DNA of 45,555 nt. It comes from a virus. This document shows, in pieces, positions 18,254-35,899 of this stretch; position 1 is the stretch's first letter, and each line of letters opens with the position of its first letter. Both the position numbers and the translations under genes were made by a program. Where the stretch lies: the UHGV virus genome UHGV-2198558, one strand, 5' to 3'. The notes beneath the pieces were generated by a model. That model was not told the origin of the DNA. It saw only the letters and a list, made by a program, of their open reading frames with translations, and did not search any database.

Positions 18254-18338
18254 GATCATACTCTCCGTATGATCCGCACTGAAAAGACGACAAAGCGGCG
18301 ACAAAACGGTTACACCGCACTCTATGGAGGTGAAAACT

Positions 18339-18842
18339 ATGGCGCGTAAGAACAAACGCCTGAAAACAGAATACCACAGAGGTCTCGGTTTTGATCCGCG
18401 AAAGTATATGACTTCCTACTCCCACCAAACTCGCTGTGAATCAATTCCGACTCCCGACCGTGCTCCAAAGCGCGGCGATATCTGGTTTGCGCGGCTCGGC
18501 ACACATCCGAATTCCAGTGTGCAGGGCGGCACCCGTCCCGTTATCATCATTTCTAACGACCTCGGCAACGAACACGCTGACACCGTCAATGTTGTGCCGA
18601 TGACCAGACACCTGAAAAAGCCGGAGCTGCCTTGTCACACTCCGCTTTCTCCCGGCAGCATTACCGATAGCAGACAGCCGCTTGAACTGTCAATGGTGCT
18701 GGCGGAGCAGCTCACAACTGTCAGCAAGAACGCACTTCGCTATTATGCAGGTCATATTTCCGATGACGAAGCTATGAACCGCATCGAAACCGCTGTTATT
18801 GCGCAGCTCAGTCTTGAAAGGAGATATTCCAAATGCCTGTGA
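18339..18842 (+). CDS. MazF/PemK-like protein with a 48-aa basic N-terminal extension
   Basis: GDIWFARLGTHPNSSVQGGTRPVIIISND and NVVPMT parallel E. coli MazF GDLIWVDFDPTKGSEQAGHRPAVVLS and CVPCTT. GGAGGT RBS 7 nt before ATG 18339. Confidence 0.6.
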   Translation: MARKNKRLKTEYHRGLGFDPRKYMTSYSHQTRCESIPTPDRAPKRGDIWFARLGTHPNSSVQGGTRPVIIISNDLGNEHADTVNVVPMTRHLKKPELPCHTPLSPGSITDSRQPLELSMVLAEQLTTVSKNALRYYAGHISDDEAMNRIETAVIAQLSLERRYSKCL

Positions 18843-21262
18843 ATTTTGTCAATATCCCAGATGTTCTGAAGCAGACCGCTTCTTTCTGTGTCTGGAAGCT
18901 GGAAAAGAGATCCGGCAGACCGACCAAAGTACCGTATAACCCTCGCACCGGTGCAATGGCGAGAACCAACGATCCGTCTACCTTTGCAGACTTCAATACA
19001 GCAATGAAATCCTATGCCATCGGCGGATGGGACGGTATCGGCTATCGTGTCAGCGAAGGCATCGGTGCAATCGACATCGACCACTGCATCCGTGAGGACG
19101 GCAGTCTCAATGATGTTGCAGCATCCATTCTCGGTATCTTCCCCGATGCGTACTTTGAGCGCAGCCCCTCTGGTACCGGCTTGCGCGGCTTTTTTCGCCT
19201 TTCTCCTGATTTCGCCTACGATAAGACTGTGTACTACATCAACAACCGAAAGCACGGTCTGGAGGTCTATCTTCCCGGTGTGACGAACCGCTTTGTGACT
19301 GTTACAGGAGATATGTTCCGCAATGGTGCAGTTACCCGAAATGACGGTTCCCTGCGCACACTACTTGATACCTTCATGAAGCGCAGCACCCGTGTATCTT
19401 CCAAGACTGTCGAGCCTGTGTCCTATCTCGATGATGACGGTGTTATCGCTCACGCATCGGCATCTGAATCCGGCGACAAGTTCAAAGCACTGTATGCCGG
19501 TAACTGGGAGGAAGGCTACGATTCCCAGTCCGATGCAGATATGGCGCTTGTGTCTATCCTTGCATTCTGGTGCGGTAATGTCGAGGAGCAGATCGACCGT
19601 ATCTTCCGAACTTCCGGTCTGATGCGTGATAAGTGGGATCGTATGACCGGAGACAGAACTTACGGACAGATCACGATCCGCAATGCTGTCGCTACCAATT
19701 CCGCTGTCTATACACCGATTCAGGATTCTACGGCAGAAGATGACTTTGACGATATCGAGGGCGATGCGGAAAATGAGCAGCTTATGTTTGAGCCTGATCT
19801 CACCCATGTTTCCCTGACGCTGGAAGAAATGCAGCCGCACACGAATCCCCGCTATCAGCGTGACGAGATCGGCATCGGATATGCATTTGCGGATTATTAT
19901 AAGCCCATCGCTCGTTTTGACCGTGAGCGCGGCATCTGGTATGTCTTTGACGGGAAGGTGTGGCAGCCGGACGAGAATGCGCTTGCCGTGGCGGAGCTTG
20001 CAAAGCGTCTGGCAGACAGGCTGTATACCTTTGCCCTTCAGATCAAGGATGAGGACACACGCAACCGCTATATCAAGCGAGTGCAGAAGCTGCAAATGCG
20101 GAAGAACCGCCGCACCATGATCGAAGATGCGAAATCCGTGTATCCAGTGCCGCACGCTATCTTTGACCGCAATACCTACCTTTTCAACTGTCAGAACGGG
20201 ACACTGAACCTCACCACAGGTGAATTCCGTCCGCACGATCCGGCAGACTTTCTCACCATGATGTCCGGTGTCACTTATGATCCGAACGCCACCTGTCCAC
20301 GATGGGAGCAGTTCATTTCCGAAGTTATGTGTAATGATGCTGACCTCGCATTATACTTGCAAAAAGCCCTCGGATATGCGCTTACCGGCGACACATCACT
20401 GGAATGCCTGTTCATCCTCTACGGTGCAACATCCAGAAACGGCAAAGGCACCACAATGGAGACCTTTCTCAAAATCATGGGCGACTACGGCAAAACCTCC
20501 AATCCGGAGATGCTGTCTACGAAATTCGGCAACACCAATGCTTCCGGACCGTCCGAAGAGATCGCCCGGCTTGCGGGTGTCCGTTTTGTCAATATCTCCG
20601 AGCCGGAGAAGAAGATCACCTTCAATGCGGCACTGGTAAAGCGTATGACGGGTAATGATACACTGAATGCACGTTTCCTGCATGAGAATTCCTTCGACTT
20701 CCGACCGAATTTCAAGATCTTCATCAATACGAATTACAAACCGTCCGTTTCTGATATGACACTGTTTTACTCCAACCGTCTGAAGCTCATTCCGTTCAAA
20801 CGCCATTTTGAGGAGCATGAGCAGGACAAAGGTCTGAAAGCATTTTTCAGTACGTATGTCTGCCTCTCTGCCATCTTCAACTGGTGCTATGAAGGATATA
20901 AGCGGTTCCGTTCCGAAGATCTGGAAGATCCGGCTGCTGTATCTCAAGCAACCAAGGAGTATCAGGAGGAGTCTGACCGTATCGGGCAGTTTGTGGATGC
21001 GTGGCTCGAAGAAGGCGAAGCATTTGAAGTCCGTACCTCTGCGGCATATAAGCTGTACGGTGAATGGTGCGATAAATATGGCTACCGCAAGGAAAACAGC
21101 ACCAACTTCAATAACGCGATCCAGCGTTTCTTCCCCATCGTGCGTAAGCGCCCGAACGATACTAAGGGTGCGCAGAAAACAACGATGCTTGTGGGCTGTC
21201 GTTTTCTGGAGCATGAAAACGGCGAAGCTGACGAACCAGAGGAGTTTGCAGCTTTGGAGTAA
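18833..21262 (+). CDS. Primase-helicase (Prim-Pol N-domain plus P4-type primase NTPase)
   Basis: Prim-Pol motifs GAIDIDHC and SPSGTGLRGFF; Walker A ILYGATSRNGKGTT; 809 aa; GAAAGGAG RBS. Confidence 0.85.
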   Translation: MPVNFVNIPDVLKQTASFCVWKLEKRSGRPTKVPYNPRTGAMARTNDPSTFADFNTAMKSYAIGGWDGIGYRVSEGIGAIDIDHCIREDGSLNDVAASILGIFPDAYFERSPSGTGLRGFFRLSPDFAYDKTVYYINNRKHGLEVYLPGVTNRFVTVTGDMFRNGAVTRNDGSLRTLLDTFMKRSTRVSSKTVEPVSYLDDDGVIAHASASESGDKFKALYAGNWEEGYDSQSDADMALVSILAFWCGNVEEQIDRIFRTSGLMRDKWDRMTGDRTYGQITIRNAVATNSAVYTPIQDSTAEDDFDDIEGDAENEQLMFEPDLTHVSLTLEEMQPHTNPRYQRDEIGIGYAFADYYKPIARFDRERGIWYVFDGKVWQPDENALAVAELAKRLADRLYTFALQIKDEDTRNRYIKRVQKLQMRKNRRTMIEDAKSVYPVPHAIFDRNTYLFNCQNGTLNLTTGEFRPHDPADFLTMMSGVTYDPNATCPRWEQFISEVMCNDADLALYLQKALGYALTGDTSLECLFILYGATSRNGKGTTMETFLKIMGDYGKTSNPEMLSTKFGNTNASGPSEEIARLAGVRFVNISEPEKKITFNAALVKRMTGNDTLNARFLHENSFDFRPNFKIFINTNYKPSVSDMTLFYSNRLKLIPFKRHFEEHEQDKGLKAFFSTYVCLSAIFNWCYEGYKRFRSEDLEDPAAVSQATKEYQEESDRIGQFVDAWLEEGEAFEVRTSAAYKLYGEWCDKYGYRKENSTNFNNAIQRFFPIVRKRPNDTKGAQKTTMLVGCRFLEHENGEADEPEEFAALE

Positions 21263-21301
21263 AAGTAGACTTTTCTCCGTATTTACGCTGTTTTCCGCAG
21301 T

Positions 21302-21500
21302 TGGGGCAGCGTGGGGCAAGTTTTTTCGGTGGTTATTATTATTACTTCTCTTTATATATATTACTATTTTTACTTGCCCCTACTTGCCCCAAATAAATAA
21401 AAACAATAGAAAAGATAAGAAGAATAGAGGATTTTCACTGATTTGAACCATTACCCATTTTGCACTGTTTTGAACCTTGCCCGATGCTGTCACTGACAAA
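21302..21500. promoter_or_regulatory. Putative replication origin / regulatory region downstream of the primase gene
   Basis: Tandem tacttgcccc x2 (21371-21390) with inverted partner ggggcaag (21313-21320), AT-rich core 21331-21420, and repeated tttgaacc motifs. Confidence 0.35.
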
Positions 21501-21568
21501 GAGTGTGTAAGCGACAAAGCGTGGCAAGGTCAAAATCCAATAAACAATCATACAGGAGGAACACGAAT

Positions 21569-22663
21569 ATGAGAATCATTACTTCAGAACAGGTATCCGC
21601 AGGACATCCCGACAAGATCTGTGACCAAATCGCGGATGCCATCGTGACAGACTGCCTTCAGCATGACCGCAGCAGTCGTGTTGCGATAGAGTGTCTTTTC
21701 AAGAACCGCTGTCTTGTGATCGCCGGTGAGCTGACCAGTACCCATGAGCCGGACTACAAGGCTCTGGTGCAGCAGGTGTTCGACCGTATCAACAACGGCG
21801 GAGCTGAGAACAGCGATGCGGGACTTGACTACAAGCTGGACTTCACCGCCGATGATCTGGACATTGCGATTCTGGTCGATCACCAGAGCAATGACATTGC
21901 GCTCGGTGTGAATGTCGGCGGTGCAGGAGATCAGGGTATGATGTACGGCTATGCGACCAACGAAACGCCGGAGATGCTCCCGATCCCCTTCGTGCTGGCT
22001 ACCAGATTTCTGGAACTGCTGAAAGCCTACCCCTGCCGTATGCTGAAAGCCGATGCAAAGGCACAGGTCAGCTATGACTATGACAGCGGTCGCATTACCA
22101 CCTTCCTCTGCTCGGTGCAGCATACACACGATGTGGATGTTGAGGACTTCAAGCCCATCATCGAAAAGCTGATGGTGAGAACGGCAACCGAATACGGGCT
22201 GAATACAGACTTTGCAAAGCTCGTCAACCCGACCGGCAGATTTGTCATAGGCAGTTCCTTTGCGGACTGCGGCGTTACCGGACGCAAGCTCGCCTGCGAT
22301 ACCTATGGCGGTATCGGGCATATCGGCGGCGGTGCAATGTCCGGCAAAGATCCGTCTAAGGTTGACCGCAGCGGCGCATATGCAGCAAGAAAAATCGCAA
22401 GGGATATCGTCAGCGCCGGATATTCAGACAAGGCAGAGGTGCAGATCGCATACGCCATCGGTGTGGCAGAGCCCGTATCCGTGTATGTAGAGACTTTTGG
22501 CACGGAGCATCAGGATACGGAGTTCATCAACCAGTATGTTCGTGAGAATTATGACCTCACGCCGAGGGGAATCATCGAAGGGCTGCATCTGCTCGATGTG
22601 GACTATAACGCCATTTCCGCATACGGACACTTCGGAAAACAGAACCTTCCGTGGGAACTATAA
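21569..22663 (+). CDS. metK: S-adenosylmethionine synthetase
   Basis: Collinear with bacterial MetK: SAGHPDKICDQIAD, GAGDQGMMYGYA, DTYGG, GGGAMSGKDPSKVDRSGAYAARKIA; GGAGGA RBS before ATG 21569. Confidence 0.88.
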   Translation: MRIITSEQVSAGHPDKICDQIADAIVTDCLQHDRSSRVAIECLFKNRCLVIAGELTSTHEPDYKALVQQVFDRINNGGAENSDAGLDYKLDFTADDLDIAILVDHQSNDIALGVNVGGAGDQGMMYGYATNETPEMLPIPFVLATRFLELLKAYPCRMLKADAKAQVSYDYDSGRITTFLCSVQHTHDVDVEDFKPIIEKLMVRTATEYGLNTDFAKLVNPTGRFVIGSSFADCGVTGRKLACDTYGGIGHIGGGAMSGKDPSKVDRSGAYAARKIARDIVSAGYSDKAEVQIAYAIGVAEPVSVYVETFGTEHQDTEFINQYVRENYDLTPRGIIEGLHLLDVDYNAISAYGHFGKQNLPWEL

Positions 22664-22689
22664 TAAATTTTTTGAAATTTTTTTTGATT

Positions 22690-22733
22690 GGATACCCACA
22701 AAATGCCCTCTCCCACGACAGTATATGAGGGGC
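22690..22733. repeat. Copy 2 of the 44-bp intergenic repeat
   Basis: ggatacccacaaaatgccctctcccacgacagtatatgaggggc; hairpin preserved through an A-U to G-U change. Confidence 0.6.
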
Positions 22734-22826
22734 GTTGTTCAGACCGACCACAAACACACTACAAACCAAGCGGGACTGACCGCCCCTATCACTATGCAAC
22801 ACCACTGTGGAAAGGAGGCAGAGACA

Positions 22827-23186
22827 ATGCCAAGCAGACCAAAAACACCATGCAGACACCCCGGCTGTGCTGCGCTCGTACCTTATGGCACCAAGTATTG
22901 TGACAAGCACCGTTCTCTCCATCCGGAGGACACACGCTCCGCAGGCAGTCGAGGCTATGGCACCACATGGAACAAGACCCGCAAGCGTTACCTTGAGACG
23001 CATCCGCTGTGCGTGGAGTGCATGAAGCAAGGGCGCTATATCAAGGCGACCGATGTCGATCACATCATGCCGCACCGAGGAGACAATGTTCTCTTCTGGG
23101 ATCAGAGCAACTGGCAGAGCCTCTGCCACCGACACCACAGCATCAAGACCCGAAATGAGGATCACACCCCCGAGTACAAGTACTAA
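22827..23186 (+). CDS. HNH endonuclease (small phage type)
   Basis: AAAGGAGG RBS; CRHPGC...CDKH...PLCVEC...DVDHIMP...N.QSLC..HH pattern; 119 aa. Confidence 0.8.
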   Translation: MPSRPKTPCRHPGCAALVPYGTKYCDKHRSLHPEDTRSAGSRGYGTTWNKTRKRYLETHPLCVECMKQGRYIKATDVDHIMPHRGDNVLFWDQSNWQSLCHRHHSIKTRNEDHTPEYKY

Positions 23187-23644
23187 ACGCAAGCCACACT
23201 CACTATCGTTGCAGTTCAGGCAGTCTCAGGGGTGTACCTATGGGCGGGGCTGGGGGCTGGGGTTGCCCGCCGGGGCGGGTTCACTTCTCTGTGTGAAAGC
23301 GAACACAAGACCGTCGGCCCCTCTCGTGTGAAAAAACGCGAATTTGCAAGGGCCCCGGTCATTTGGGACCCTGACAGAGATATATTAGCTGTAAATGAAA
23401 TACTGTGCAGAAAACAGAAAACGCAGATTTTTCGTGCTTTTCCATATGCTGCCGTAGGAAACTGCGGCGGCAGGATACATACAGAGTTTCGTTACAAAAT
23501 GCACTGTAAAACGGCGAATTTACGTCAAAAAGCGATAGAATTAGCACATTTTTAGCGCCAAACCGCATTTTACAGTTTTATTCTTGGCGGAGCCCGTGTG
23601 GATACCGAAAACCGCATAAAATCAGAAGTTTCGAGGTGAATCAG

Positions 23645-23950
23645 ATGACAGATTCTCAAAAATATCAAGTACGAATTATGCGGATGCAGGGCATTGGATA
23701 TAAGGCAATAGCAAGGTCGCTGGGCTTGAAAACCAATCAGGTGCAGCTCTTTTGCAAGGCTCACGGTCTTGCAGGAGACAATCATCTGGTCGATGTCAAC
23801 TATCAAATCTGGTGTCAGCAAAACAACCGCTGTCCGGTCTGCGGTGCAAAGGTCACCCAGCCGAGGACAGGACGGCGAAAACGCTTCTGTTCCGGACGGT
23901 GCAGAACAAGATATTATCGTGAAAAACTGGAGGAATCAAAATGCTTGTAA
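23645..23950 (+). CDS. Small DNA-binding protein (HTH plus C-terminal zinc ribbon)
   Basis: HTH-like QVRIMRMQGIGYKAIARSLGLKTNQVQ; CPVCG...CSGRC. Start ATG 23645 (or GTG 23636). Confidence 0.55.
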   Translation: MTDSQKYQVRIMRMQGIGYKAIARSLGLKTNQVQLFCKAHGLAGDNHLVDVNYQIWCQQNNRCPVCGAKVTQPRTGRRKRFCSGRCRTRYYREKLEESKCL

Positions 23951-24097
23951 CCGTTTTGTGCCTTACTTACATGATGATCATCATCCTGATCCATGCGATC
24001 TGGATATCTTCGATCATCAAGCATGACGGGAAATGCCACTACAACGACTGCGGTCACTGTCCGTATGACGCCTGGTGTCCGATGCAGGAGGAAAAAC

Positions 24098-24583
24098 ATG
24101 ACACTGACAGAGAACTTCATTCGTGATGCGATACAGCTTGACAGCGGTGCAGAGGTCATGTACGGCAGCGATCAGATCTATGACACCTACCCCTGCCGCT
24201 TTCCGACTGTCGAGTTCCAGCTCATGGCAACGGATGCACTTGCGGAGGTCGCAGACCGCATCCGAATGGAGAAAGGCTATCTCCCGATGCATCCGAGGGA
24301 CGGGCGCACGGACGATGTTGACAATGACGGCTGGTACGACTTTTATATCGGGATTAGCAAGCTCCCCAGCGATCATAAGGAATGCAAACTTGACAGCAGC
24401 ATTAGTTTCGTGGTCGTCAATTCAGATTCCGATGACAACGAGGATATGTACAGCATTGACCTGACTGAAACAGAGCAGGCGTATGTGTATGAAATACTGA
24501 ACCGGCAATGCCGGAGATATCACGGGAAGGACTGTGCCACGCTTCTGGCAGAGTCTGAAAAGGAGCTGATGGATACAGCATGA
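24098..24583 (+). CDS. Hypothetical protein
   Basis: AGGAGGA RBS before ATG 24098; 161 aa; stop overlaps the nrdD start. Confidence 0.55.
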   Translation: MTLTENFIRDAIQLDSGAEVMYGSDQIYDTYPCRFPTVEFQLMATDALAEVADRIRMEKGYLPMHPRDGRTDDVDNDGWYDFYIGISKLPSDHKECKLDSSISFVVVNSDSDDNEDMYSIDLTETEQAYVYEILNRQCRRYHGKDCATLLAESEKELMDTA

Positions 24584-26721
24584 GGATAATAAAACGAAAC
24601 GGCGCTGAGGTGCCGTATGACTGCGAAAAGATACGAGCCGCAATATCAGCGGCAAATGATGAAGTGCCGGAGAAGATATCAGATACAGTGATCGGATTCA
24701 TTGTCGGGAATGTAGAAAAACGCTGTCATGCCCTTGCAAGACCTGTCCATGTCGAAGAAGTCCAGGACATGGTTCTTGATGAACTGGACAAGGCCGAGGC
24801 TTACAAACTTGCACGGCACTACAGTGAGTACCGCCTGTGGCATGAGCAGCAGCGCCGTATGAACACCACCGACGGCAAGATTCTCAGTCTGCTGGAACGC
24901 AACAACGAGGAGGCAAAGCAGGAGAACGCCAACAAGAACCCCATCATCAACAGCACGCTCCGTGACTATATGGCGGGAGAAGTCAGTCGGGATATATGTC
25001 GGCGCTTCCTGTTTCCGGAGGATGTGATCGCCGCCCATGATGACGGCATCATTCATGTGCATGACCTCGACTACATCGCAGAGCCGATGCACAATTGCTG
25101 TCTGGTGAATCTGGAGGATATGCTTCAAAACGGCACAGTGGTATCCGGTACTATGATTGAGAAGCCGCACAGCTTTTCGACTGCCTGCAATATCGCAACG
25201 CAGATCATTGCACAGGTGGCATCAAATCAGTACGGCGGACAGACGGTATCTCTGGCACATCTTGCGCCTTTCGTGGATATCAGCCGACAGAAAATTCGTG
25301 CCGAGGTGTTCGAGGATGTGAACTGCGACTGCGGTGCAAAGCTGTCTGAAAAAGAACTGGACTACATCGTAGAAAAGCGCGTGCGACGGGAAGTCAAGCG
25401 AGGCGTACAAACGATCCAGTATCAGATCAACACGCTCCTGACAACCAACGGTCAGACACCGTTCGTGACGGTATTCATGTATCTGGACGAGGCACCGGAG
25501 GGACAGACCAGAGATGACCTTGCACTCATTATCGAGGAAACGCTGCTTCAGCGTATCGAGGGCGTGAAAAACGAGAAGGGCGTGTGGATCACACCGGCAT
25601 TCCCGAAGCTGATCTATGTTCTCGATGAGGACAACATTCAGCCCGGTTCCAAGTATTACTACCTCACCGAGCTTGCGGCGAAGTGTACCGCAAAGCGTAT
25701 GGTTCCCGACTATATTTCCGCAAAGGTGATGAAACGTCTGAAGGGTGATGTGTATGCCTGCATGGGCTGCCGGTCATTCCTGACACCTTCTGCCGACCAC
25801 AAATACTACGGCAGATTCAATCAGGGAGTCGTCACGATCAACCTTGTGGATGTTGCGTGTAGCGCAGGCGGAGACGAAGATAAATTCTGGCAGCTTCTTG
25901 ATGAACGCTGCGAACTGTGCCGCAAGGCTCTGATGTGCAGGCATGAACGTCTGAAAGGTACGCCGTCCGATGTTGCACCGATCCTCTGGCAGTATGGCGC
26001 ACTTGCGAGACTGAAGAACGGTGAGGTCATTGACAATTTGCTGTATAACAACTACAGCACGATCTCCCTCGGCTATGCCGGCATCGCGGAAATGACCTAC
26101 CGCATGACAGGCTGTTCGCATACAGAGTCGGAGGGAAAATCCTTCGCCATTTCAGTGATGCATTTTCTGAACGATAAGTGCAGCAAATGGAGAGCTGAAA
26201 GCAATATCTCGTTCTCGCTATACGGCACGCCGATGGAATCTGTGACCTACAAATTTGCAAAGTGTCTGCAAAGGCGGCATGGTATTATTCCGCACGTCAC
26301 GGACAGGAGCTACATTACCAACAGCTATCATGTCCATGTGACAGAGCCGATCGACGCCTTCAGCAAGTTGTCCTTTGAAGCGGAGTTTCAGGAGCTTTCT
26401 CCCGGCGGTGCGATTTCGTATGTAGAAGTGCCGAACCTTCAGAACAACATTCCTGCGGTTCTGGCACTCATGAAACACATTTACGAAACGATTTTATATG
26501 CTGAACTCAACACTAAGTCCGACTACTGTCAGGCTTGTGGCTATGACGGGGAGATGCAGATCGTGGAAGAGGACGGCAAGCTGATCTGGGAATGCCCGAA
26601 CTGCGGCAACCGTGACCAGCGGACAATGAATGTCTGCCGCCGCACCTGCGGATATCTCGGAACGCAGTTCTGGAATCAAGGGCGCACACAGGAGATCGCA
26701 GAAAGGGTGATGCACCTGTGA
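24580..26721 (+). CDS. nrdD: Anaerobic ribonucleoside-triphosphate reductase
   Basis: N-terminal ATP-cone; C-terminal zinc ribbon CQACG...CPNCG; glycyl-radical motif RRTCGYLG; 713 aa. Confidence 0.88.
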   Translation: MRIIKRNGAEVPYDCEKIRAAISAANDEVPEKISDTVIGFIVGNVEKRCHALARPVHVEEVQDMVLDELDKAEAYKLARHYSEYRLWHEQQRRMNTTDGKILSLLERNNEEAKQENANKNPIINSTLRDYMAGEVSRDICRRFLFPEDVIAAHDDGIIHVHDLDYIAEPMHNCCLVNLEDMLQNGTVVSGTMIEKPHSFSTACNIATQIIAQVASNQYGGQTVSLAHLAPFVDISRQKIRAEVFEDVNCDCGAKLSEKELDYIVEKRVRREVKRGVQTIQYQINTLLTTNGQTPFVTVFMYLDEAPEGQTRDDLALIIEETLLQRIEGVKNEKGVWITPAFPKLIYVLDEDNIQPGSKYYYLTELAAKCTAKRMVPDYISAKVMKRLKGDVYACMGCRSFLTPSADHKYYGRFNQGVVTINLVDVACSAGGDEDKFWQLLDERCELCRKALMCRHERLKGTPSDVAPILWQYGALARLKNGEVIDNLLYNNYSTISLGYAGIAEMTYRMTGCSHTESEGKSFAISVMHFLNDKCSKWRAESNISFSLYGTPMESVTYKFAKCLQRRHGIIPHVTDRSYITNSYHVHVTEPIDAFSKLSFEAEFQELSPGGAISYVEVPNLQNNIPAVLALMKHIYETILYAELNTKSDYCQACGYDGEMQIVEEDGKLIWECPNCGNRDQRTMNVCRRTCGYLGTQFWNQGRTQEIAERVMHL

Positions 26722-27185
26722 ATTACTGCGGTCTGAATAAAAACGATATTGCCAACGGTGAAGGTGTGCGTGTGTCGCTGTTCGTGTCCGGATGCCGGAA
26801 TCACTGCATCGGCTGTCACAATCCCGAAGCATGGGATTTCGGCTACGGTCAGCCGTTTACCAAAGAAACCGAAAAAGAGATCATCGAAGCCCTGCGTCCT
26901 TCTTGGATACAGGGCATTTCTATACTCGGCGGTGAACCCTGCGAGGAGGAAAACGAGCGTGTTCTGATACCGTTTCTGAAACGGATAAAACTTGAGTCTC
27001 CGAATTCGGACACTTGGCTGTTCTCCGGATACACCTACGAAATGCTTCAGAATGATGAGATTCTCAAATACATTGATGTGCTTGTGGACGGGCCGTTCCT
27101 GATGGAACAGAAGAACATCTCCCTTGCATTCCGGGGCAGTCGGAATCAACGAATCCTCCGATTAAGAAATGGGGTGCGTGTATGA
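26718..27185 (+). CDS. nrdG: Anaerobic RNR activating protein (radical SAM)
   Basis: CRNHCIGCHN (CxxxCxxC) near the N-terminus; GTG start overlapping the nrdD stop. Confidence 0.82.
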   Translation: MNYCGLNKNDIANGEGVRVSLFVSGCRNHCIGCHNPEAWDFGYGQPFTKETEKEIIEALRPSWIQGISILGGEPCEEENERVLIPFLKRIKLESPNSDTWLFSGYTYEMLQNDEILKYIDVLVDGPFLMEQKNISLAFRGSRNQRILRLRNGVRV

Positions 27186-27499
27186 GAGCCAGACTGAAAC
27201 CGCCGGGAGATGCTGTCCGCTGCGATGCCTGCGGATGTGCCTTTGTGCCGGAGCCGAAAATGCAGCGTGAGGGAGAGATCGAATACAGCTTCCTCAACTG
27301 TGATTACTGTGGCAAAGCGTATATCGTGTCTGTGACCGATGCCGCACTCCGCCGGAGCATCCGCAAGTACCGGACGCTTGCCGAAAAGCTGAAGGGCAAG
27401 CCGTTGAGTGAAGATACGCTCCGTGAGGTCACGGCGCTGAAGGATGCGAACACAAAAAGAGCCGCAGAGCTGCGGCAGATGTATATTCGGGAGGGATGA
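27182..27499 (+). CDS. Hypothetical zinc-ribbon protein
   Basis: CDACGC...CDYCGK; ATG overlaps the nrdG stop. Confidence 0.5.
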   Translation: MRARLKPPGDAVRCDACGCAFVPEPKMQREGEIEYSFLNCDYCGKAYIVSVTDAALRRSIRKYRTLAEKLKGKPLSEDTLREVTALKDANTKRAAELRQMYIREG

Positions 27500-27500
27500 G

Positions 27501-28772
27501 ATGAAAACAGCAGAACTTCGCATGATCCCTGTCTCGGAGCTGAAGCCTGCGGAATACAATCCGCGTAAAAAGCTGAAGCCCGGCGACAAGGAATACGAGA
27601 AGATCAAAAACAGCATCGAGGAATTCGGCTTTGCCGACCCGCTTGTTGTCAACGCCGACATGACGATCATCGGCGGACACCAGAGACTGACCGTAGCAAC
27701 GGCGCTCGGTTACACGGAAGTTCCGTGTGCGGTGGTGGACATCGACAAAGTCCGTGAGAAGGCACTGAACATTGCGCTGAATAAGATCACGGGTGCATGG
27801 GACGAGAATCTTCTGGCGGAACTTCTCGAAGATATCCAGAGCAGCGATTTCGACCTCGGCAAGACCGGCTTTGATCCGCCGGAGATCGAGCAGCTTTTCA
27901 ATGCCGTTCATGACAAGCAGGTCAGTGAGGACAGCTTCGATGTGGAGGAGGAGCTGCAAAAGCCGACATTCTCGCAGCCGGGAGATATCTGGATTCTCGG
28001 CAGGCACAAAGTCATCTGCGGCGATAGTACAATCGCAGAGACATACACCAAGCTGATGGACGGGCAGAAGGCAAACCTCGTCCTGACCGATCCTCCGTAC
28101 AATGTGGATGTTGAGGAAACTGCCGGAAAGATCATGAATGACAACATGAGCGACAGTGATTTCTATAGCTTCCTGCTTTCCGCTTACAAGTGTATGTATG
28201 ACAGTCTTGCCGATGACGGCAGCATTTATGTATGGCACGCCGACACCGAGGGGCTGAACTTCCGCAGAGCGTTCAAGGAGGCAGGCTTCCAGCTTTCTGG
28301 CTGCTGTATCTGGAAGAAGAATTCTCTGGTGCTGGGCAGAAGCCCCTATCAGTGGATTCATGAGCCGTGTCTCTTCGGGTGGAAACAGAAGGGCAAGCAT
28401 CAGTGGTATGCCGACCGCAAGCAGACAACTGTATGGGAGTATGACAAGCCCAAGAGCAGCCCCGATCATCCGACCACAAAGCCTATCCCGCTGATGGCGT
28501 ACCCGATCAAGAACAGCACCATGACCAACGGCATCGTTCTCGATCCGTTCCTCGGCAGCGGTTCGACACTGATCGCCTGTTGCGAGACAGACCGTGTTTG
28601 TCGGGGCATCGAGCTTGATCCGAAGTTCGTGGATGTCATTGTCAAGAGGTATCTGGCATGGTGCCAAGAGAAGCAGACCGCCGAGGTCGCATATGTCATT
28701 CGTGATGGACAGAAGCTCACCTATGAGGAGGCTATCGCAGCGATGCCGCAGGGCGGTGATGCAGTTGAGTGA
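27501..28772 (+). CDS. ParB-like nuclease domain fused to a DNA methyltransferase (N6-adenine/N4-cytosine class)
   Basis: N-terminal ParB-like segment (PAEYNPR...IIGGHQR); methyltransferase motif IV TDPPY and motif I DPFLGSGST; GGGAGGG RBS. Confidence 0.82.
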   Translation: MKTAELRMIPVSELKPAEYNPRKKLKPGDKEYEKIKNSIEEFGFADPLVVNADMTIIGGHQRLTVATALGYTEVPCAVVDIDKVREKALNIALNKITGAWDENLLAELLEDIQSSDFDLGKTGFDPPEIEQLFNAVHDKQVSEDSFDVEEELQKPTFSQPGDIWILGRHKVICGDSTIAETYTKLMDGQKANLVLTDPPYNVDVEETAGKIMNDNMSDSDFYSFLLSAYKCMYDSLADDGSIYVWHADTEGLNFRRAFKEAGFQLSGCCIWKKNSLVLGRSPYQWIHEPCLFGWKQKGKHQWYADRKQTTVWEYDKPKSSPDHPTTKPIPLMAYPIKNSTMTNGIVLDPFLGSGSTLIACCETDRVCRGIELDPKFVDVIVKRYLAWCQEKQTAEVAYVIRDGQKLTYEEAIAAMPQGGDAVE

Positions 28773-29544
28773 TGTGAAGTGTGTATTATATCACGACAAC
28801 TTCCAAAACTTCAAAGGCTACAGCATCCCGAAAGCGCAGCTCGTCATCGCTGACATCCCGTACAACATCGGCGGCGATTTTTACGCAAGCCGCCCCGACT
28901 GGTATGTGGACGGTGACAATCAGAACGGCGAAAGCAGCAAAGCACATAAGGCGGCATTCCATACAGATTACAGCTTTAACATTGCTGAATACTTCGCCTT
29001 CTGCAACCGACTGCTCAAAAAAGAGCCGCCAAAAGGTGAAAAGGATGCGCCGTGCATGATCGTGTTCTGTGCCTTTCAGCAGATACCGGAAGTCATCCGG
29101 CAGGCGGAGAAATACGGCTTCAAGAAGTATCAGTTTTTGTGTTTTATGAAGAATTACAGTCCGCAGGTGTTGAAGGCGAACATGAGGATCGTGGGCGCAA
29201 CGGAATACGCTCTGGTGCTGTACCGGGGCAAGCTGCCGAAATTCCGAAACACGGATGAGAATGGCAAACACCACATGATCTTCGACCATTTTGACTGGAT
29301 GCGGGACGGCAAGGATATCCCGAAGATACATCCTTCGCAGAAGCCGGTAAATCTCCTGAAACGGCTGATCGGGATATTTACCGACGAGGGTGATGTGGTC
29401 ATCGATCCCTGCGCCGGTTCCGGCTCAACGCTGCGTGCGGCGAGGGAGCTTGGCAGACACAGCTACGGCTTTGAAGTCAGCCGGGATTTTTATAATAAAG
29501 CCTGTGAACTGATGCTTGGGGAGGATACCGATGACGAAGCATGA
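28759..29544 (+). CDS. Second DNA methyltransferase (N6-adenine/N4-cytosine class)
   Basis: ADIPYNIG (DPPY-like) and IDPCAGSGST (motif I); start overlaps the previous gene. Confidence 0.72.
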   Translation: MQLSDVKCVLYHDNFQNFKGYSIPKAQLVIADIPYNIGGDFYASRPDWYVDGDNQNGESSKAHKAAFHTDYSFNIAEYFAFCNRLLKKEPPKGEKDAPCMIVFCAFQQIPEVIRQAEKYGFKKYQFLCFMKNYSPQVLKANMRIVGATEYALVLYRGKLPKFRNTDENGKHHMIFDHFDWMRDGKDIPKIHPSQKPVNLLKRLIGIFTDEGDVVIDPCAGSGSTLRAARELGRHSYGFEVSRDFYNKACELMLGEDTDDEA

Positions 29545-29776
29545 ATGTGCGGTCGTGACCGCTTACACAGAGATTTCTATGCTCAAGGGCGACGATCTGA
29601 AATATCTGTATGACTATCTTTCCGGCTTTATCGGCAGACCGGTGTATACACACGAGATTTCTGCTGTGGTGATGGCTTACAGAGAGCAGATCAGGGAGGA
29701 CTTCCTCGATCTGTGCAGGAACGCAAAGGAGGCGGATGATGGATCAGAAACACTTGACTCTCGGCAGCTTATTTGA
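29531..29776 (+). CDS. Hypothetical small protein
   Basis: GGGGAGGA RBS before ATG 29531; overlaps flanking methyltransferase genes. Confidence 0.4.
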   Translation: MTKHECAVVTAYTEISMLKGDDLKYLYDYLSGFIGRPVYTHEISAVVMAYREQIREDFLDLCRNAKEADDGSETLDSRQLI

Positions 29777-32339
29777 CGGCTCCGGTGGCTTTCCGCTTGG
29801 CGGCATCCTTGCAGGGATCGAGCCGAAGTGGAGCAGCGAAATTGAACCATTCCCGGTGCTTGTCACGCACAAGCGGCTGCCGCAGGTGAAGCACTACGGC
29901 GATGTATCCAAACTGAACGGAGCAGAGCTTCCGCCGGTGGATATCATCACCTTCGGCAGCCCGTGTCAGGATCTGTCCATAGCGGGCAAGCGCGCCGGAA
30001 TCCATGACGGTGATCGGTCAAACCTGTTCTTTCAGGCGATCCGCATCATCAAAGAAATGAGGGATGCAACAAATGGACGATATCCGCGATACTGCGTCTG
30101 GGAAAATGTCCCCGGCGCTTTCTCATCCAACGGAGGAAACGACTTCAAGGCTGTCCTCGAAGCAGTTATCGGAGTTAAAGAAAAAGGGATCGAGGTGCCT
30201 GCGCCTGAAAATCACAGATGGGCAAAATCAGACGTATATCTGGGAGACGGATGGAGCGTGGCTTACCGAGTTTTCGATGCTCAATACTGGGGTGTCCCCC
30301 AACGCAGAGCAAGAATCTACCTTGTCGCAGATCTTGCTGGTGGAAGTGCCGGAGAAGTATTATTTAAGTCCGAAGGCGTGTCTGGGTATACTCCGCAGGG
30401 CTTCCGTGCGTGGCAAGGAGCTGCCGGAGGTGCTGAAGAAGGCACTGGAGAGACAGGCGGGCGGTCTGACGCTGGAGGTGGAACCCTCTGCCTGAATACA
30501 CAGGGCAACAGCGGCGTCGGCATCACCGAGAACAAGGCTCTCGCACTGGTCGCACAGGATCATGGCAATCATCCGGCTGTGCTTCATGCGGTCGGTATCG
30601 ACGGCTACAATGCTGCGGTCACCGATGATACGGCAGCAACGCTTGGTGTGAACTGCGGAATGTCCACAGGCAGAAACGGTGTCCTGCAGGCGGCGGGATT
30701 TTCCACAGAACACAGTGCAAAAGCAAGGAGCATCGGCTACGAGGAAGAGGTATCTCCCACACTTCGAGCCGGTGTTGTTCCGGCGGCAATGGAGTTATAT
30801 GAAAATCATGGGCAGGACAGCAGATTCAGAGGACCTTTGGATGTAGCACAGCCTGTGACTGCTACCTACGGCATGGGCGGCAACAATCAGCCGCTTGTGG
30901 TAGAGAACAATCCCACGGACGGCAGAGCGAAGATCAATCCCGACGGTGTGTTTCAGACGCTCTGCGGACGAGCCGGAACAGGCGGAAACAACACGCCGCT
31001 TGTTGCTGAACCGGTCACGCTGAAAATCAGGTCGGGATGTGAGGGCGGTGGCAAGGGTGCTTTATGGCAGACCGACAAGTCTGCTACGCTCGGCACAAAC
31101 AATGACCAGAGTGTATTTGTTCCGTTCGTCAAGGGAACACGTCCGCACTCTGCTGAAGAGGGGCAAACATGGAAACCCGGCGAGGTCGCCAATACACTGA
31201 ATACCTTTGATGTCGGTGAAAGTCGCTGCAATGAACTTGTGGTGGAAGAGCCGCAGATCAGGGCTTTCGGTGTATGCAGCAAGCATTCCAATGCGATGAT
31301 GTCCGACAATCCGCACAGCGGATTCTATGAGGCGACCACAAGCAGAACGCTCGACCAAAGTGGTGGAAATTCTGTGACATCGAATCAGGGCGGCATCTGC
31401 GTGGTAGCACCTGCGCCTGAAACCTTCGATGTGCGTTTCACATCAGACGGTACAAAAAACGCTCGTGGGCATTGCTATCCGACAGACATCTCCCGATGCC
31501 TTGATACGAGCGAGGGATCGCCAGACTCGAATCACGGCGGTGTCGCTGTGGTGGCTCTTGAACCGGGGGCTGCATCACGTGTCGGCGGTCATGTATACAG
31601 TGACGGCAAAAGCGGTACGCTTCGAGCCAATGCCGGCGATAATCAGCAGGCTGTTGTGGTCGCCGAGCCGGAGACCTATGCTCTGCAAGGCTCGATGATC
31701 GGTCGTGCCGACAAGAACGGTCCGCAGGGTGATGGCATCAACGAGGATGTGTGCTTTACGCTCAATACATCGGACAGACACGCCATTGCCGCACCTGATC
31801 CGTCCTTCACAATTTCCCGCGACAACCATTTTGCCGTTTCGGAGGATGTATCCGTTACAGCCGTGGCAAGAGGCCCTGCGGCAGTCGCAGCACCGGCAGA
31901 CCACTATTGCACCAGTAAGAATTCGCATCATACGGTCGCCGCCCATGAGCAGGCAAACACGCTGGTCGCTTCCGACTGGAAGGATCCGCCGCTTGTGAAC
32001 GACCTTCCGAATGACGAGCCAGTATATATCGTTCGCCGCTTGACTCCGGTTGAGTGCGCCAGATTGCAGGGATTCCCTGACTGGTGGTGTGCCGACCTTG
32101 CAATTACTGATCCTTCCGATGAGGAGATCGCCTTCTGGACGGAGGTCTGGGAGACATGGCGGCAGGTCACAAATCCCAAGGGCAAGCCGAAAACGGAAAA
32201 GCAGATCCGCAAATGGCTGGCTGATCCGTACACGGATTCAGCGGAGTACAAGCTGTGGGGCAACGGTGTCTCAGAGCCGGTCGTATACTTCGTGCTTTCC
32301 GGCATCGCATGGGCAGCGCAGAGAGATACACAAAAGTGA
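29736..32339 (+). CDS. C5-cytosine DNA methyltransferase with an unusually long, repetitive target-recognition region
   Basis: Motif I LFDGSGGF, motif IV GSPCQDLSIAGKR, motif VI ENVPGA, motif X RRLTPVECARLQGFPDWW; about 550 aa between motifs VIII and IX with at least 8 TL-type motifs; 867 aa. Confidence 0.85.
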   Translation: MMDQKHLTLGSLFDGSGGFPLGGILAGIEPKWSSEIEPFPVLVTHKRLPQVKHYGDVSKLNGAELPPVDIITFGSPCQDLSIAGKRAGIHDGDRSNLFFQAIRIIKEMRDATNGRYPRYCVWENVPGAFSSNGGNDFKAVLEAVIGVKEKGIEVPAPENHRWAKSDVYLGDGWSVAYRVFDAQYWGVPQRRARIYLVADLAGGSAGEVLFKSEGVSGYTPQGFRAWQGAAGGAEEGTGETGGRSDAGGGTLCLNTQGNSGVGITENKALALVAQDHGNHPAVLHAVGIDGYNAAVTDDTAATLGVNCGMSTGRNGVLQAAGFSTEHSAKARSIGYEEEVSPTLRAGVVPAAMELYENHGQDSRFRGPLDVAQPVTATYGMGGNNQPLVVENNPTDGRAKINPDGVFQTLCGRAGTGGNNTPLVAEPVTLKIRSGCEGGGKGALWQTDKSATLGTNNDQSVFVPFVKGTRPHSAEEGQTWKPGEVANTLNTFDVGESRCNELVVEEPQIRAFGVCSKHSNAMMSDNPHSGFYEATTSRTLDQSGGNSVTSNQGGICVVAPAPETFDVRFTSDGTKNARGHCYPTDISRCLDTSEGSPDSNHGGVAVVALEPGAASRVGGHVYSDGKSGTLRANAGDNQQAVVVAEPETYALQGSMIGRADKNGPQGDGINEDVCFTLNTSDRHAIAAPDPSFTISRDNHFAVSEDVSVTAVARGPAAVAAPADHYCTSKNSHHTVAAHEQANTLVASDWKDPPLVNDLPNDEPVYIVRRLTPVECARLQGFPDWWCADLAITDPSDEEIAFWTEVWETWRQVTNPKGKPKTEKQIRKWLADPYTDSAEYKLWGNGVSEPVVYFVLSGIAWAAQRDTQK

Positions 32340-32416
32340 ACGCATAACGTGCCCGTTTTGAAACGATGAAACGAAAACTCCCGAATCTGCGTTACTTTGA
32401 TTTCGCAAAGATACAC

Positions 32417-32599
32417 TCATTCAGATTTCTTGTCTCCGCCAAGCTCGATCTTTCCGTGCTTTTCCTCATATTTTTCAATGCAGTCACGGATCAGGATCAG
32501 AACCTGACTGTTGGCAGAACGACCTTCGTAATCGGCAACAACGTGAAGTTTATCAAGCATCTCCTGTTCGATACGGATGGATACACTTTTAATAGCCAT
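32417..32599 (-). CDS. Ribbon-helix-helix (CopG/Arc-like) DNA-binding protein
   Basis: MAIKSVSIRIEQEMLDKL... beta-strand then helix pattern; AAGGA RBS; the only minus-strand gene in the 35-kb plus-strand block. Confidence 0.55.
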   Translation of the reverse strand: MAIKSVSIRIEQEMLDKLHVVADYEGRSANSQVLILIRDCIEKYEEKHGKIELGGDKKSE

Positions 32600-32712
32600 A
32601 AAACAACTTCCTTTCAGATATATTATGACTTTATTTTAGACCTGTTTTGTGGTATAATGTTTGAAATGGATATAAAGTGTATCTAAAATATATCTATAAG
32701 AAGTTGTACGAT

Positions 32713-33051
32713 ATGAAAATAGCAATTATTGGCTCACGGGGACTTCATGTGAATGACCTTGAACGGTATCTTCCGGAAGATGTCACAGAAATCGTCAGCG
32801 GAGGAGCAAGGGGCATTGATTCGGATGCGCGGGCATACGCACAGGCACACGGCATTCCGCTGAAGGAGTTTCTGCCGGATTATGAACGCTTCGGCAGGAG
32901 CGCCCCGCTGAAACGGAATCTTGAGATCATCGCTTATGCCGATGTGGTGCTTGCATTCTGGGACGGACAGTCACGCGGCACGAAATATGTGATAGACCAT
33001 TGCCGGGAACAGCACGTTCCGGTCAGGGTTTTCGCACCGAGAAAGAAATAG
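32713..33051 (+). CDS. SLOG/DprA-like Rossmann-fold protein
   Basis: IAIIGSRG...VSGGARGIDSDARAYA...ADVVLAFWDGQSRGT pattern; start uncertain (ATG 32713 or GTG 32677). Confidence 0.5.
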   Translation: MKIAIIGSRGLHVNDLERYLPEDVTEIVSGGARGIDSDARAYAQAHGIPLKEFLPDYERFGRSAPLKRNLEIIAYADVVLAFWDGQSRGTKYVIDHCREQHVPVRVFAPRKK

Positions 33052-33186
33052 TAATAAAGAAGCCATGCAGCAAATTGTGAACATTCTGATACTAAATCAG
33101 ATGTTCTGCCGCAGGGCTTCTTTCTATTCTGTACTATGCACAATCTAAAGGGCAGACACGCCCCGTACATTCTCCGTTTTACAGTC

Positions 33187-33215
33187 TTGCATTCCGGGGC
33201 AAAAGACGGTAATAT
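33187..33215 (+). promoter_or_regulatory. Cassette promoter 1
   Basis: TTGCAT, 17-nt spacer, TAATAT, followed by GTGAC leader. Confidence 0.5.
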
Positions 33216-33283
33216 GTGACTACGAAAACGCCGCAGCCCAACGCACAAGGCTGAGGGGCGGCAGTAAAAACGGAGGTAATCAT

Positions 33284-34192
33284 ATGGAAATCAAGTTCAA
33301 TATTGAAAAGAGCCAGCGCAAGGCACTGGCACAGAAAATCGGCGAGCTGACAGGAGCAGAGGTCAAGTACCTCGGTGTACCGGGCTGCAGATACCAGATC
33401 GACTTCTTCACCCTGGACAAAAACGCAGTCCTCAGTTTCAGCGACCGCATCGACACAGATATCGTGGAGAAGGTACTGAATGGGCTTGCAGAGGCAGGAT
33501 ATGAAAGCAAAACAGTAGCACCGCCGGAAGAAACGGATGCTTCGGCTGAATCAGAGCCGGATATCCCTGACGAACCGAGCAGCGGATTTCCGCTGCTCGC
33601 AAGCATCAGCTTCCCGATTGCAGAGCACACGGTGCAGAGCCTTACAAACCTTATCTGCATGATCCACTCCCGCGGCGCACTTCTCAGCAAGGCGACCGGC
33701 GGACAGTTCTTCGCAGACAAGAGCCTCGCCGATGCGATCCTCGATGACAAGACCTTCCGCAGCATCCACGAGCTTATCGCCTACATCAGAGTATGGGAGG
33801 AAACGAATCCCGAACTGAAGGGCATCCGTTTCGCCGATGACAAGCTGATCTTTGACGGCTTCGGTGCAGCGCAGGATGCCGAAACGGTGCAGACCTTCAC
33901 CAAGCTCGCCACAGCCATGAACAGGATGGCGATCACGCAGAAACGTGTGCAGGCAAAGGATGTCGATGACAGCAACGAAAAGTACGCACTCCGCATCTGG
34001 CTGATCCGCCTTGGGCTGAACGGCGCAGACTGCAAGGTTGACCGCAAGCGCCTCATGGCTCCGCTTTCCGGACACACCGCATTCCGCAACGATGCGGAGC
34101 GTGTGCGCTGGGAGGCAAAGCAAAAGGCAAAGCGTGATGCTGCCAGAACCGAACTGACCGAGGAGGATGAAAACGATGCAGTTTCCGAATGA
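33284..34192 (+). CDS. Hypothetical protein sharing a C-terminal module with the amidoligase
   Basis: CGGAGG RBS; C-terminus KYALRIWLIRLGLNGADCKVDRKRLMAPLSGHTAFRN aligns with the amidoligase C-terminus. Confidence 0.6.
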   Translation: MEIKFNIEKSQRKALAQKIGELTGAEVKYLGVPGCRYQIDFFTLDKNAVLSFSDRIDTDIVEKVLNGLAEAGYESKTVAPPEETDASAESEPDIPDEPSSGFPLLASISFPIAEHTVQSLTNLICMIHSRGALLSKATGGQFFADKSLADAILDDKTFRSIHELIAYIRVWEETNPELKGIRFADDKLIFDGFGAAQDAETVQTFTKLATAMNRMAITQKRVQAKDVDDSNEKYALRIWLIRLGLNGADCKVDRKRLMAPLSGHTAFRNDAERVRWEAKQKAKRDAARTELTEEDENDAVSE

Positions 34193-34424
34193 AAGACAGC
34201 TCAGAGCCTTGCGGGAGCGTTATCCCGCAGGCACCCGCATCCGACTGAAGCATATGGATGACCCTTATGCACCCGTACCGCCCGGCACGGTCGGCGAGGT
34301 TCAGATGGTTGATGACGGCGGCAACATACACATGGTCTGGGAGAATGGCAGAACGCTCTCCCTTATAGACGGTGTCGATGATTTCCAGGTCATTTCTGAC
34401 CGCAATGGGGGCTCCGGAAAATAA
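34176..34424 (+). CDS. Small conserved protein (DUF4314-like by recall)
   Basis: GAGGAGG RBS 9 nt before ATG 34176; GTVGEVQMVDDGGNIHMVWENGRTLSLIDGVDDF. Confidence 0.45.
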   Translation: MQFPNERQLRALRERYPAGTRIRLKHMDDPYAPVPPGTVGEVQMVDDGGNIHMVWENGRTLSLIDGVDDFQVISDRNGGSGK

Positions 34425-34537
34425 GAGATCCTATTCCATTGTATCCGAGTATACCATAGAATTTCAAGTATATCAAGTGTACACATACACCAGATATGAG
34501 CAATGTATTTTCCTCGATATTCTGTGGTTTTAGCGGC

Positions 34538-34566
34538 TTGCTATATCCTCCGAAAGACGGTAATAT
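34538..34566 (+). promoter_or_regulatory. Cassette promoter 2
   Basis: TTGCTA, 17-nt spacer, TAATAT, then conserved leader GTGACACAACGGAAGGGCAAACGCCCACCGAAAA. Confidence 0.55.
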
Positions 34567-34621
34567 GTGACACAACGGAAGGGCAAACGCCCACCGAAAA
34601 ACCGAATCGGAGGATACCAAA

Positions 34622-35566: not shown

Positions 35567-35831
35567 AGGCCTGCCCTTCGGGGCGGAAGAACAAGCGGAA
35601 CGGCACGGCGGCGCACACAGCCGCCACGGTCTCGGCTCTCGCCTCGGTCGGTGCTTCTGCTTCGCAGAGGTTGCCACTGGCAACCCGCACCCCCGTGTGT
35701 GGCGGAAAGGGTATCCTCCGAATCGGTATCCCATCTCAGTCAACCGCGCCACACAGCGCAAATGTAGGCAAGGCATAAAATGCACAACATACGGCACAGA
35801 ATCGCCCTCGATGATCTGTTCATTTACCCGC

Positions 35832-35860: not shown

Positions 35861-35899
35861 AGCACTACCGCAAGGAAAAAACGCAAAGGAGAACATAGC

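Follow-up and report, generated by a model that had tools for sequence, protein, structure and literature searches.

S-Adenosylmethionine (SAM) synthetase and C5 cytosine DNA methyltransferase are the two commonest auxiliary genes of Candidatus (Ca.) Heliusvirales, in which they occur in 58.9% and 67% of the genomes, respectively, and a contribution of both to withstanding restriction-modification has already been proposed for these phages (de Jonge et al. 2024, PMC11283538). Here, we analyzed a 45,555-nucleotide stretch of the UHGV virus genome UHGV-2198558 (the window, to which all positions refer), focusing on the interval 21569-32339, which runs from the ATG of the SAM synthetase gene metK to the stop codon of a C5 methyltransferase gene and carries all its genes on the plus strand. 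Genes were assigned using Pfam, NCBIfam and the gene calls on identical public contigs. The findings described below led us to propose that this metK probably encodes an active SAM synthetase acting within a conserved self-methylation module of the Heliusvirales type, where it would keep up the supply of the methyl donor. Both the arrangement of MetK with methyltransferases and the anti-restriction idea are already known, and little is new in the MetK cluster itself; what the present analysis adds is the clade-wide truncation of the enzyme, the missing riboswitch, the quantified synteny and the reading of NrdD-NrdG as an insertion.

The window carries genes of a temperate tailed phage, encoding a CI-like repressor, an exonuclease, a Gp2.5-like single-stranded DNA-binding protein, a family A DNA polymerase, an SNF2 helicase, a primase, a MazF-like protein, two amidoligases, a gamma-glutamyl cyclotransferase, TerS and TerL. 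When it was compared with Evtepia phage NatCom_42594, which is classified in Ca. Heliusvirales, the gene order was equal and the identities amounted to 73% for TerL, 70% for TerS, 55% for the helicase and 56% for the DNA polymerase. The Heliusvirales markers portal and capsid lie outside the window, and the comparison therefore rests on identity and gene order and not on the TerL hidden Markov model and tree of the authors of that group; judged in this way, the temperate phage in the window probably is of the Ca. Heliusvirales type. It also occurs, with its MetK unchanged, on 13 public metagenome contigs. A relative whose MetK is 69% identical (L088) resides in Clostridium fessum SNUG30386. 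When the region was compared with GenBank phages by megablast, only short matches of about 72% identity were obtained, so there is no close described relative among them. As in the Heliusvirales genes for MetK (K00789) and C5 methyltransferase (K00558), the order is MetK-HNH-...-methyltransferases-...-TerS-TerL, and the MetK of the window is 61% identical to that of the Evtepia phage. However, the window phage differs from this relative in that NrdD-NrdG separates HNH from the methyltransferases, that there is a second N6/N4 methyltransferase, and that the C5 enzyme is twice as long, its variable region comprising 568-573 amino acids versus about 207. In deposited Heliusvirales sequences, MetK is mislabelled as 'peptidase' (L001:11998-13044; GenBank PV036427, PV036428, PV036430, PV036444, PV036445 and PV036448), which hides these genes from text searches. 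A MetK of the same short clade (57% identical, ending one residue after PWE) is also encoded by streptococcal prophages (phi1207.3 Orf29, Javan phages, Streptococcus agalactiae 12/111phiA), in which the order is primase-...-MetK-HNH-...-DNA methylase-C5 methylase-TerS-TerL. These prophages differ from the window in having no NrdD-NrdG and a small C5 enzyme (389 amino acids), and the experimental work on the group covered host aggregation and biofilm only, not methylation.

The metK gene (21569-22663, plus strand; ATG start with AGGAGG 8 nt upstream) encodes a protein of 364 amino acids, in which all three S-AdoMet synthetase domains (PF00438, PF02772 and PF02773) score above the Pfam cut-offs and which reaches 385.5 bits against the equivalog model TIGR01034 (cut-off 309.4). 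An earlier note on this DNA, made from the sequence alone, had called it a near-full-length MetK homologue, and the intact, three-domain protein bears this out. The protein could be aligned over its whole length with bacterial and human enzymes of known structure and was 48% identical to Escherichia coli MetK, aligning to its residues 5-369. Alignment with the E. coli enzyme, which that note had named as a check of the catalytic residues, showed all of them to be kept: H14, D16, K17, E42, D118, K165 and F230 (pairwise, E. coli numbering) as well as D238, R244, K245, K265, K269, D271 and the gating-loop Gln98. Furthermore, the ratio of nonsynonymous to synonymous substitution rates (dN/dS) against 13 relatives was 0.06-0.09. 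The domains, the equivalog score, the catalytic residues and the low dN/dS make it very likely that this MetK is an active SAM synthetase, and we rejected a decayed, non-functional protein, as the residues are intact and dN/dS is low.

The protein ends with PWEL, 14 residues short of the C-terminus of E. coli MetK. We therefore compared the C-termini encoded by 91 phage-clade loci (MetK at least 53% identical to that of the window) with those of 74 others (at most 46% identical, mostly cellular). The former almost always stop one residue past PWE, whereas the latter have 11-20 more residues after this motif; the MetK of the window thus belongs to the short phage-type clade by both its identity and its C-terminal end, and what had been described as an enzyme ending right after PWE and shorter than its bacterial counterparts turned out to display a trait of the whole clade. 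Its identity to the enzymes of likely host families (Oscillospiraceae, Ruminococcaceae, Faecalibacterium and Acutalibacteraceae) was 42-46%, which is no higher than that to the enzymes of E. coli or Acidobacteria. A recent capture of metK from a host was accordingly rejected, and the gene appears to represent an old separate lineage. The short type is not strictly viral, since Oribacterium parvum and one Clostridia metagenome-assembled genome carry a copy among ordinary cellular genes. In these two loci (L092:9998-11056 from O. parvum ACB1, 58% identical, and L094:9995-11065, 53% identical), MetK ends right after the PWE/NWE motif and the neighbouring genes are those of TrkA, phosphoglycerate kinase and polysaccharide synthesis, so that some bacteria may use a short 'phage-type' enzyme as their chromosomal MetK.

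The phage gene also differs from cellular metK in its leader. A SAM-I riboswitch (RF00162) lies about 100-200 nt upstream of cellular metK in five of six loci from Oscillospiraceae, Ruminococcaceae, Faecalibacterium and Acutalibacteraceae, whereas none was detected upstream of metK in the nine phage-clade loci searched, the window included. A search of the window against Rfam gave nothing at the gathering thresholds, and even at E values of up to 10 the metK leader yielded noise only and no riboswitch of any class. Without a riboswitch, the phage copy would escape the feedback that limits SAM synthesis by the host.

Phage metK genes are numerous, being present in 138 GenBank phage records, in which streptococcal prophages and Heliusvirales predominate, and on 441 IMG/VR contigs. 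To quantify their surroundings, we took the 53 phage-clade metK loci whose sequence extends at least 7 kb downstream, considered 10-kb flanks, and used 52 truly cellular loci as a contrast. The order primase-MetK-HNH-...-ParB-fused methyltransferase-(second methyltransferase)-C5 methyltransferase was found across loci L001-L094. A methyltransferase homologue was present downstream on the same strand in 49 of the 53 phage-clade loci but in none of the 52 cellular ones. The ParB-fused methyltransferase was the most constant methyltransferase partner (49/53), the C5 enzyme was found in 37 of the 53, and an HNH gene in 51. Loci L055 and L056 first appeared to lack a methyltransferase, and this was rejected because a ParB-fused enzyme and an intein-bearing C5 enzyme lie just past the 10-kb flank; L092 and L094 were rejected as phage loci of this kind because their contexts are cellular. 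Every phage-context metK locus with enough sequence thus has downstream methyltransferases. The genes may be immediate neighbours: in Mycoplasmopsis phage PMF329 and in an Anaerosphaera phage, the metK stop codon overlaps the methyltransferase start, and in Erysipelothrix phi1605 a single small open reading frame (ORF) lies between the two. For the window, coordinates, Pfam matches and motifs confirmed that metK lies within 10 kb of nrdG and three methyltransferase genes, as had been reported. The interpretation of this interval as a cluster of SAM consumers held for the methyltransferases, whose association with metK is kept across the lineage, while the tie to NrdG proved weak. The interval also contains genes that the earlier note did not mention, namely nrdD, that of an HNH nuclease and four small conserved ORFs.

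NrdG (26718-27185, plus strand), the radical-SAM activase of NrdD, scored 175.3 bits against TIGR02491 (cut-off 126.1) and has the C-x3-C-x2-C motif in the form CRNHCIGC. The class III anaerobic ribonucleotide reductase NrdD (24580-26721, plus strand) scored 903 bits against NF006732 (cut-off 657) and carries the glycyl-radical motif RTCGY, an ATP-cone and matches to PF01228, PF03477 and PF13597. In passing equivalog models and keeping these motifs, both are unremarkable and resemble the class III ribonucleotide reductases of other phages, e.g. T4, but in the window they form a mobile cassette inside the modification module. The block made up of an ORF of 104 codons, one of 161 codons, nrdD, nrdG and an ORF of 105 codons was found in 26-28 of the 53 loci, all of them from the sub-clade that shares at least 70% MetK identity with the window. 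It is missing in phages of Streptococcus, Evtepia, Erysipelothrix, Anaerosphaera and Mycoplasmopsis, which keep MetK beside a methyltransferase, and in relatives outside the sub-clade HNH is followed directly by the methyltransferases. NrdD-NrdG therefore looks like a lineage-specific insertion in the modification module. NrdG cleaves one SAM per activation of NrdD and not per deoxynucleoside triphosphate (dNTP), as the glycyl radical is reused over many turnovers. The link of MetK to NrdG is weak for both reasons, i.e. the cassette is an insertion and SAM is spent per activation rather than per product. It could still be argued that MetK mainly supplies SAM to NrdG for activating the anaerobic reductase and hence for dNTP synthesis: both proteins look intact, their genes follow metK at a distance of 2-4.5 kb, both in the window and in the 26-28 related loci, and the first large gene behind metK-HNH of L056 is an nrdD with an intein. 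We regard this as improbable, since about half of the metK loci lack NrdD-NrdG, as do all distant phage lineages in which MetK is paired with a methyltransferase, the lineage of L055 and L056 has methyltransferases too, and the SAM demand of radical generation would be small. The suggestion of the earlier note that MetK drives anaerobic dNTP synthesis through NrdG is consequently not supported.

The module in which we place metK comprises a primase, MetK, HNH, a ParB-fused N6/N4 methyltransferase, often a second N6/N4 methyltransferase, and a C5 methyltransferase. In the Clostridia concerned, host metK would be turned off through the SAM-I riboswitch when SAM is plentiful, whereas the riboswitch-free phage gene would presumably be expressed whenever the replication genes are transcribed. 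SAM and the ratio of SAM to S-adenosylhomocysteine could then stay high while two or three phage methyltransferases modify each new genome copy, provided that SAM is limiting, and the packaged DNA might be shielded from restriction in the next host if the methylated sites include the targets of its enzymes. The nrdD and nrdG genes would represent a separate nucleotide-supply cassette, inserted in one sub-lineage and using SAM only catalytically. If several short motifs are methylated on both strands, about 10^3-10^4 methyl groups are needed per genome copy, and multiplication by the burst size gives a number that rivals the roughly 10^5 SAM molecules present in a cell at any time.

Several points weigh against this proposal. 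All syntenic loci come from one broad lineage, so the gene order may partly reflect common descent and not functional coupling, and insertions of 4-9 kb are tolerated between metK and the methyltransferases, which means that tight co-translation is not required. Many phages methylate their own DNA without encoding MetK, and extra SAM also feeds SAM-dependent host defences such as type I restriction-modification and BREX. As a C5 methyltransferase occurs in 67% of Heliusvirales genomes anyway (PMC11283538) and methyltransferases are very common in the lineage, the rule that MetK implies a methyltransferase is statistically weak in a sample composed of MetK-bearing relatives. Finally, deletion of the prophage metK in S. 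agalactiae 12/111phiA reduced aggregation, glycocalyx and biofilm, and plasmid-borne metK partly restored flocculation (PMC8223999); this phenotype points to expression in lysogeny and to a host-directed role. These phenotypes would be explained if MetK were a lysogenic-conversion gene that alters host physiology (SAM-dependent autoinducer-2, polyamines or the cell surface) instead of serving phage methylation, and the short-type MetK that is apparently cellular in O. parvum and the Clostridia metagenome-assembled genome would also fit. However, such a role seems rather unlikely to us: metK of the window, like that of its relatives, lies inside the replication/modification block, co-oriented with the primase and methyltransferase genes and 16 kb from the repressor/lysogeny end, complementation in S. 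agalactiae was incomplete and confounded by secondary mutations (PMC8223999), and the constant pairing with methyltransferases would be left unexplained.

Phage T3 also speaks against MetK as a supplier of methyl groups to phage enzymes, as it does the opposite and destroys SAM. Like metK of the window, the T3 SAM lyase gene allows a phage to act on the SAM pool of its host in connection with restriction-modification, but T3 inhibits host MetK, stays unmethylated and disables SAM-dependent defences, whereas the window phage adds a SAM-making enzyme beside its own methyltransferases. The T3 SAMase inhibits only those MetKs that have particular surface residues (PMC8406200), which makes MetK a target in phage-host conflict. 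This raises the idea that phage MetK might be a private, unregulated source of SAM for times when the host or a competitor lowers SAM by means of a SAM lyase or a MetK inhibitor; its divergence and the loss of its tail would then evade inhibitors, in keeping with a phage clade that is at most 46% identical to any sampled cellular MetK and uniformly without the C-terminal tail. We consider this highly improbable, since it is purely speculative, with no SAM-depleting defence or competitor known for these hosts and none indicated in the window.

Self-methylation supplied by MetK would in the window be carried out by three enzymes. The first methyltransferase (27501-28772, plus strand) consists of a ParB N-terminal domain (PF02195, residues 24-104) fused to an N6/N4 (beta-class) methyltransferase domain (PF01555, residues 211-400) with the motifs DPPY and FLGSGS. 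It shares about 29% identity, over the methyltransferase domain only, with 'DNA methylase' genes of plasmid leading regions. M.EcoGIX and M.BceJIII of conjugative plasmids are promiscuous in their single-strand N6-methyladenine formation at SAY, by which, as has been proposed, they pre-empt many restriction enzymes (Fomenkov et al. 2020, PMC7736820); they belong to the same Pfam methyltransferase family and likewise reside on a mobile element, but the similarity found is the stated 29% and covers this one domain only. The second N6/N4-family methyltransferase (28765-29544, plus strand; 259 amino acids) was recognized by Pfam and by the motifs DIPY and AGSGS and scored below the NCBIfam cut-offs.

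The C5 cytosine methyltransferase (29739-32339, plus strand; 866 amino acids) is the item that, by its sequence, suggests itself as the most unusual of the interval and as a moderately interesting lead. It was identified by Pfam and scored 120.9 bits against TIGR00675 (cut-off 100.65), and its motifs follow the canonical order: FDGSGG (motif I, FxGxG), GSPCQDLS (IV, PCQ), WENV (VI, ENV), QRRARIY (VIII, QxRxR), RRLTPVECARLQGFP (IX) and GNGV (X). Motifs I-VIII (residues 10-198) and IX (residues 766-784) aligned to residues 15-170 and 271-289 of M.HhaI, respectively. Between them lies a variable region of about 568-573 amino acids (residues 199-766 in the numbering of the 867-codon ORF; 30330-32033, plus strand); the corresponding stretch of M.HhaI measures about 100. 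Within the variable region, about 12 'TL...hhV(A/E)P' units of 32-50 amino acids follow one another in tandem at a spacing of 30-50, each of them composed of TL, a segment of 8-20 residues in which G, N, S and T are frequent, and a hydrophobic run often ending in EP. Since comparison of the protein with itself by BLAST gave no off-diagonal alignment, the repeats were examined using a hand-seeded profile with leave-one-out controls, in which 7-8 of the 12 units outscored nearly all composition-matched shuffles.

Homologues of 750-866 amino acids number in the thousands in gut metagenomes, and 44 close ones differ from the window enzyme by clean deletions of 32-43 residues, one unit each: residues 284-318 are absent in 19 of them, 352-386 in about 32, 462-504 in 34, 607-644 in 5 and 689-722 in 15. 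The variable regions fall into length classes near 460, 495, 540 and 573 amino acids, and those of distant relatives measure 150-210. The unit CFTLNTSDRHAIAAP (residues 674-695) resembles the unit of M.SPbetaI that abuts motif IX, FTVNTIDRHGVAIGE, and a similar unit occurs at a different ordinal position in the enzymes of the Streptococcus and Evtepia phages. A search of the PDB sequences with the variable region alone gave no match at E values of up to 10, and an AlphaFold2 model built with 45 close homologues was unusable (mean predicted local distance difference test score of 26.8). The Bacillus phage enzymes M.SPRI, M.Phi3TI, M.SPbetaI, M.H2I and M.phiBssHII are likewise orphan C5 methyltransferases whose region between motifs VIII and IX is enlarged by short consecutive units; however, the variable region of M.SPbetaI (443 amino acids) is about 185 residues long, as compared with about 570 residues and about 12 units here. 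Characterised multispecific C5 methyltransferases have two to five specificities. The behaviour of the units suggests that they are candidate tandem target-recognising domains. We put forward, as a tentative idea that might well prove wrong, that the variable region consists of about 12 exchangeable target cassettes, several-fold more than in characterised enzymes, which would make the enzyme 'hyper-multispecific' and let it diversify as single cassettes are acquired or lost; in combination with the two N6/N4 methyltransferases, methylation could then be heavy enough to make a riboswitch-free MetK worthwhile, and metK and the three methyltransferase genes would constitute a self-sufficient, broad-spectrum anti-restriction module.

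The remaining features of the interval complete the picture of its layout. The primase gene (18833-21262, plus strand) directly precedes the metK unit and is followed by a terminator-like hairpin (21282-21315, plus strand; a 13-pair stem and a T-run), which is weak evidence in itself; a metK transcription unit of its own may begin here. A scan of 21000-33300 for promoters and terminators was at chance level overall, this hairpin being the only element worth mentioning. Downstream of it, metK is separated from its neighbours by gaps. It is followed by the gene of an HNH endonuclease (22827-23186, plus strand; Pfam HNH and gene call) and by an ORF of 104 codons (23636-23950, plus strand), which is conserved in relatives at 31-100% identity and shows a weak, zinc-ribbon-like match to YacG below the Pfam cut-off. 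The next conserved ORF, called with 161 codons (24098-24583, plus strand), extends to 23993 and had no match in Pfam or PHROG; its stop codon overlaps the nrdD start. Behind nrdG lies an ORF of 105 codons (27182-27499, plus strand), which was assigned to phrog_1315, is conserved in relatives, was also found by gene calling and encodes many cysteine pairs, and between the second N6/N4 and the C5 methyltransferase genes a small ORF with DUF7736 (29531-29776, plus strand) overlaps the genes on both sides. The eight genes between 24098 and 32339 have touching or overlapping stops and starts, as in a single operon.

Outside the interval, we noted probable inteins and other neighbours. TerL (41582-44248) has 888 amino acids versus about 530 in relatives, and a LAGLIDADG homing-endonuclease domain (residues 303-369) splits its ATPase domain, so that an intein is likely. 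The family A DNA polymerase (11796-14681) has 961 amino acids versus 648 in the Evtepia phage, and its residues ~332-657 match PHROG families of other proteins (PhoH-like protein and ribonucleotide reductase), presumably owing to a shared intein. Furthermore, L056:11357-16300 encodes an NrdD of 1647 amino acids that contains an intein splicing domain and ends in a glutaredoxin, and the C5 methyltransferases of L173:397-3513 (minus strand; 1038 amino acids) and protein P0037 (1159 amino acids) contain Hint and homing-endonuclease domains. At the other end of the window, an island of low G+C content (78-2899, minus strand; 38% versus about 52%) encodes a strong MzaB homologue (PADLOC, 308 bits) and a protein of 365 amino acids. 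This island could be either host DNA flanking the prophage or a defence locus that the prophage carries, and the defence system may extend past the window. Genes of an SOS-response-associated peptidase (SRAP) and a thymidine kinase (3046-4253, minus strand) adjoin the repressor gene, and a MazF/PemK-like toxin gene (18324-18842) lies between those of the helicase and the primase, with no obvious antitoxin noted. Right after the methyltransferase genes, 32677-36367 encodes a SLOG/YspA-like protein, two amidoligase-family proteins and a gamma-glutamyl cyclotransferase, an arrangement conserved in relatives. The otherwise identical phage copies L166 and L168 carry, after the DUF932 gene, an insertion sequence (IS) element (2829-4009 of these loci, minus strand), which consists of an rve-family transposase and a helix-turn-helix protein and is missing from the window and from L167 and L169.

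Virome surveys of gut, rumen and digester have repeatedly reported metK and the C5 methyltransferase gene among the top auxiliary genes, and they usually file phage metK under sulfur or methionine metabolism. The truncated clade, the missing riboswitch and the constant presence of methyltransferases indicate instead that phage metK would belong to the DNA-modification machinery and not to host metabolism, and this placement affects how auxiliary metabolic genes are to be interpreted in such surveys. If the C5 enzyme does have many specificities, the argument from SAM demand would be strengthened, and the large C5 enzymes would be useful tools for protecting DNA in the transformation of hard-to-transform anaerobes. 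Likewise, if true, a dozen specificities would account for the ability of these very widespread temperate phages to withstand the many restriction systems found in gut Clostridia.

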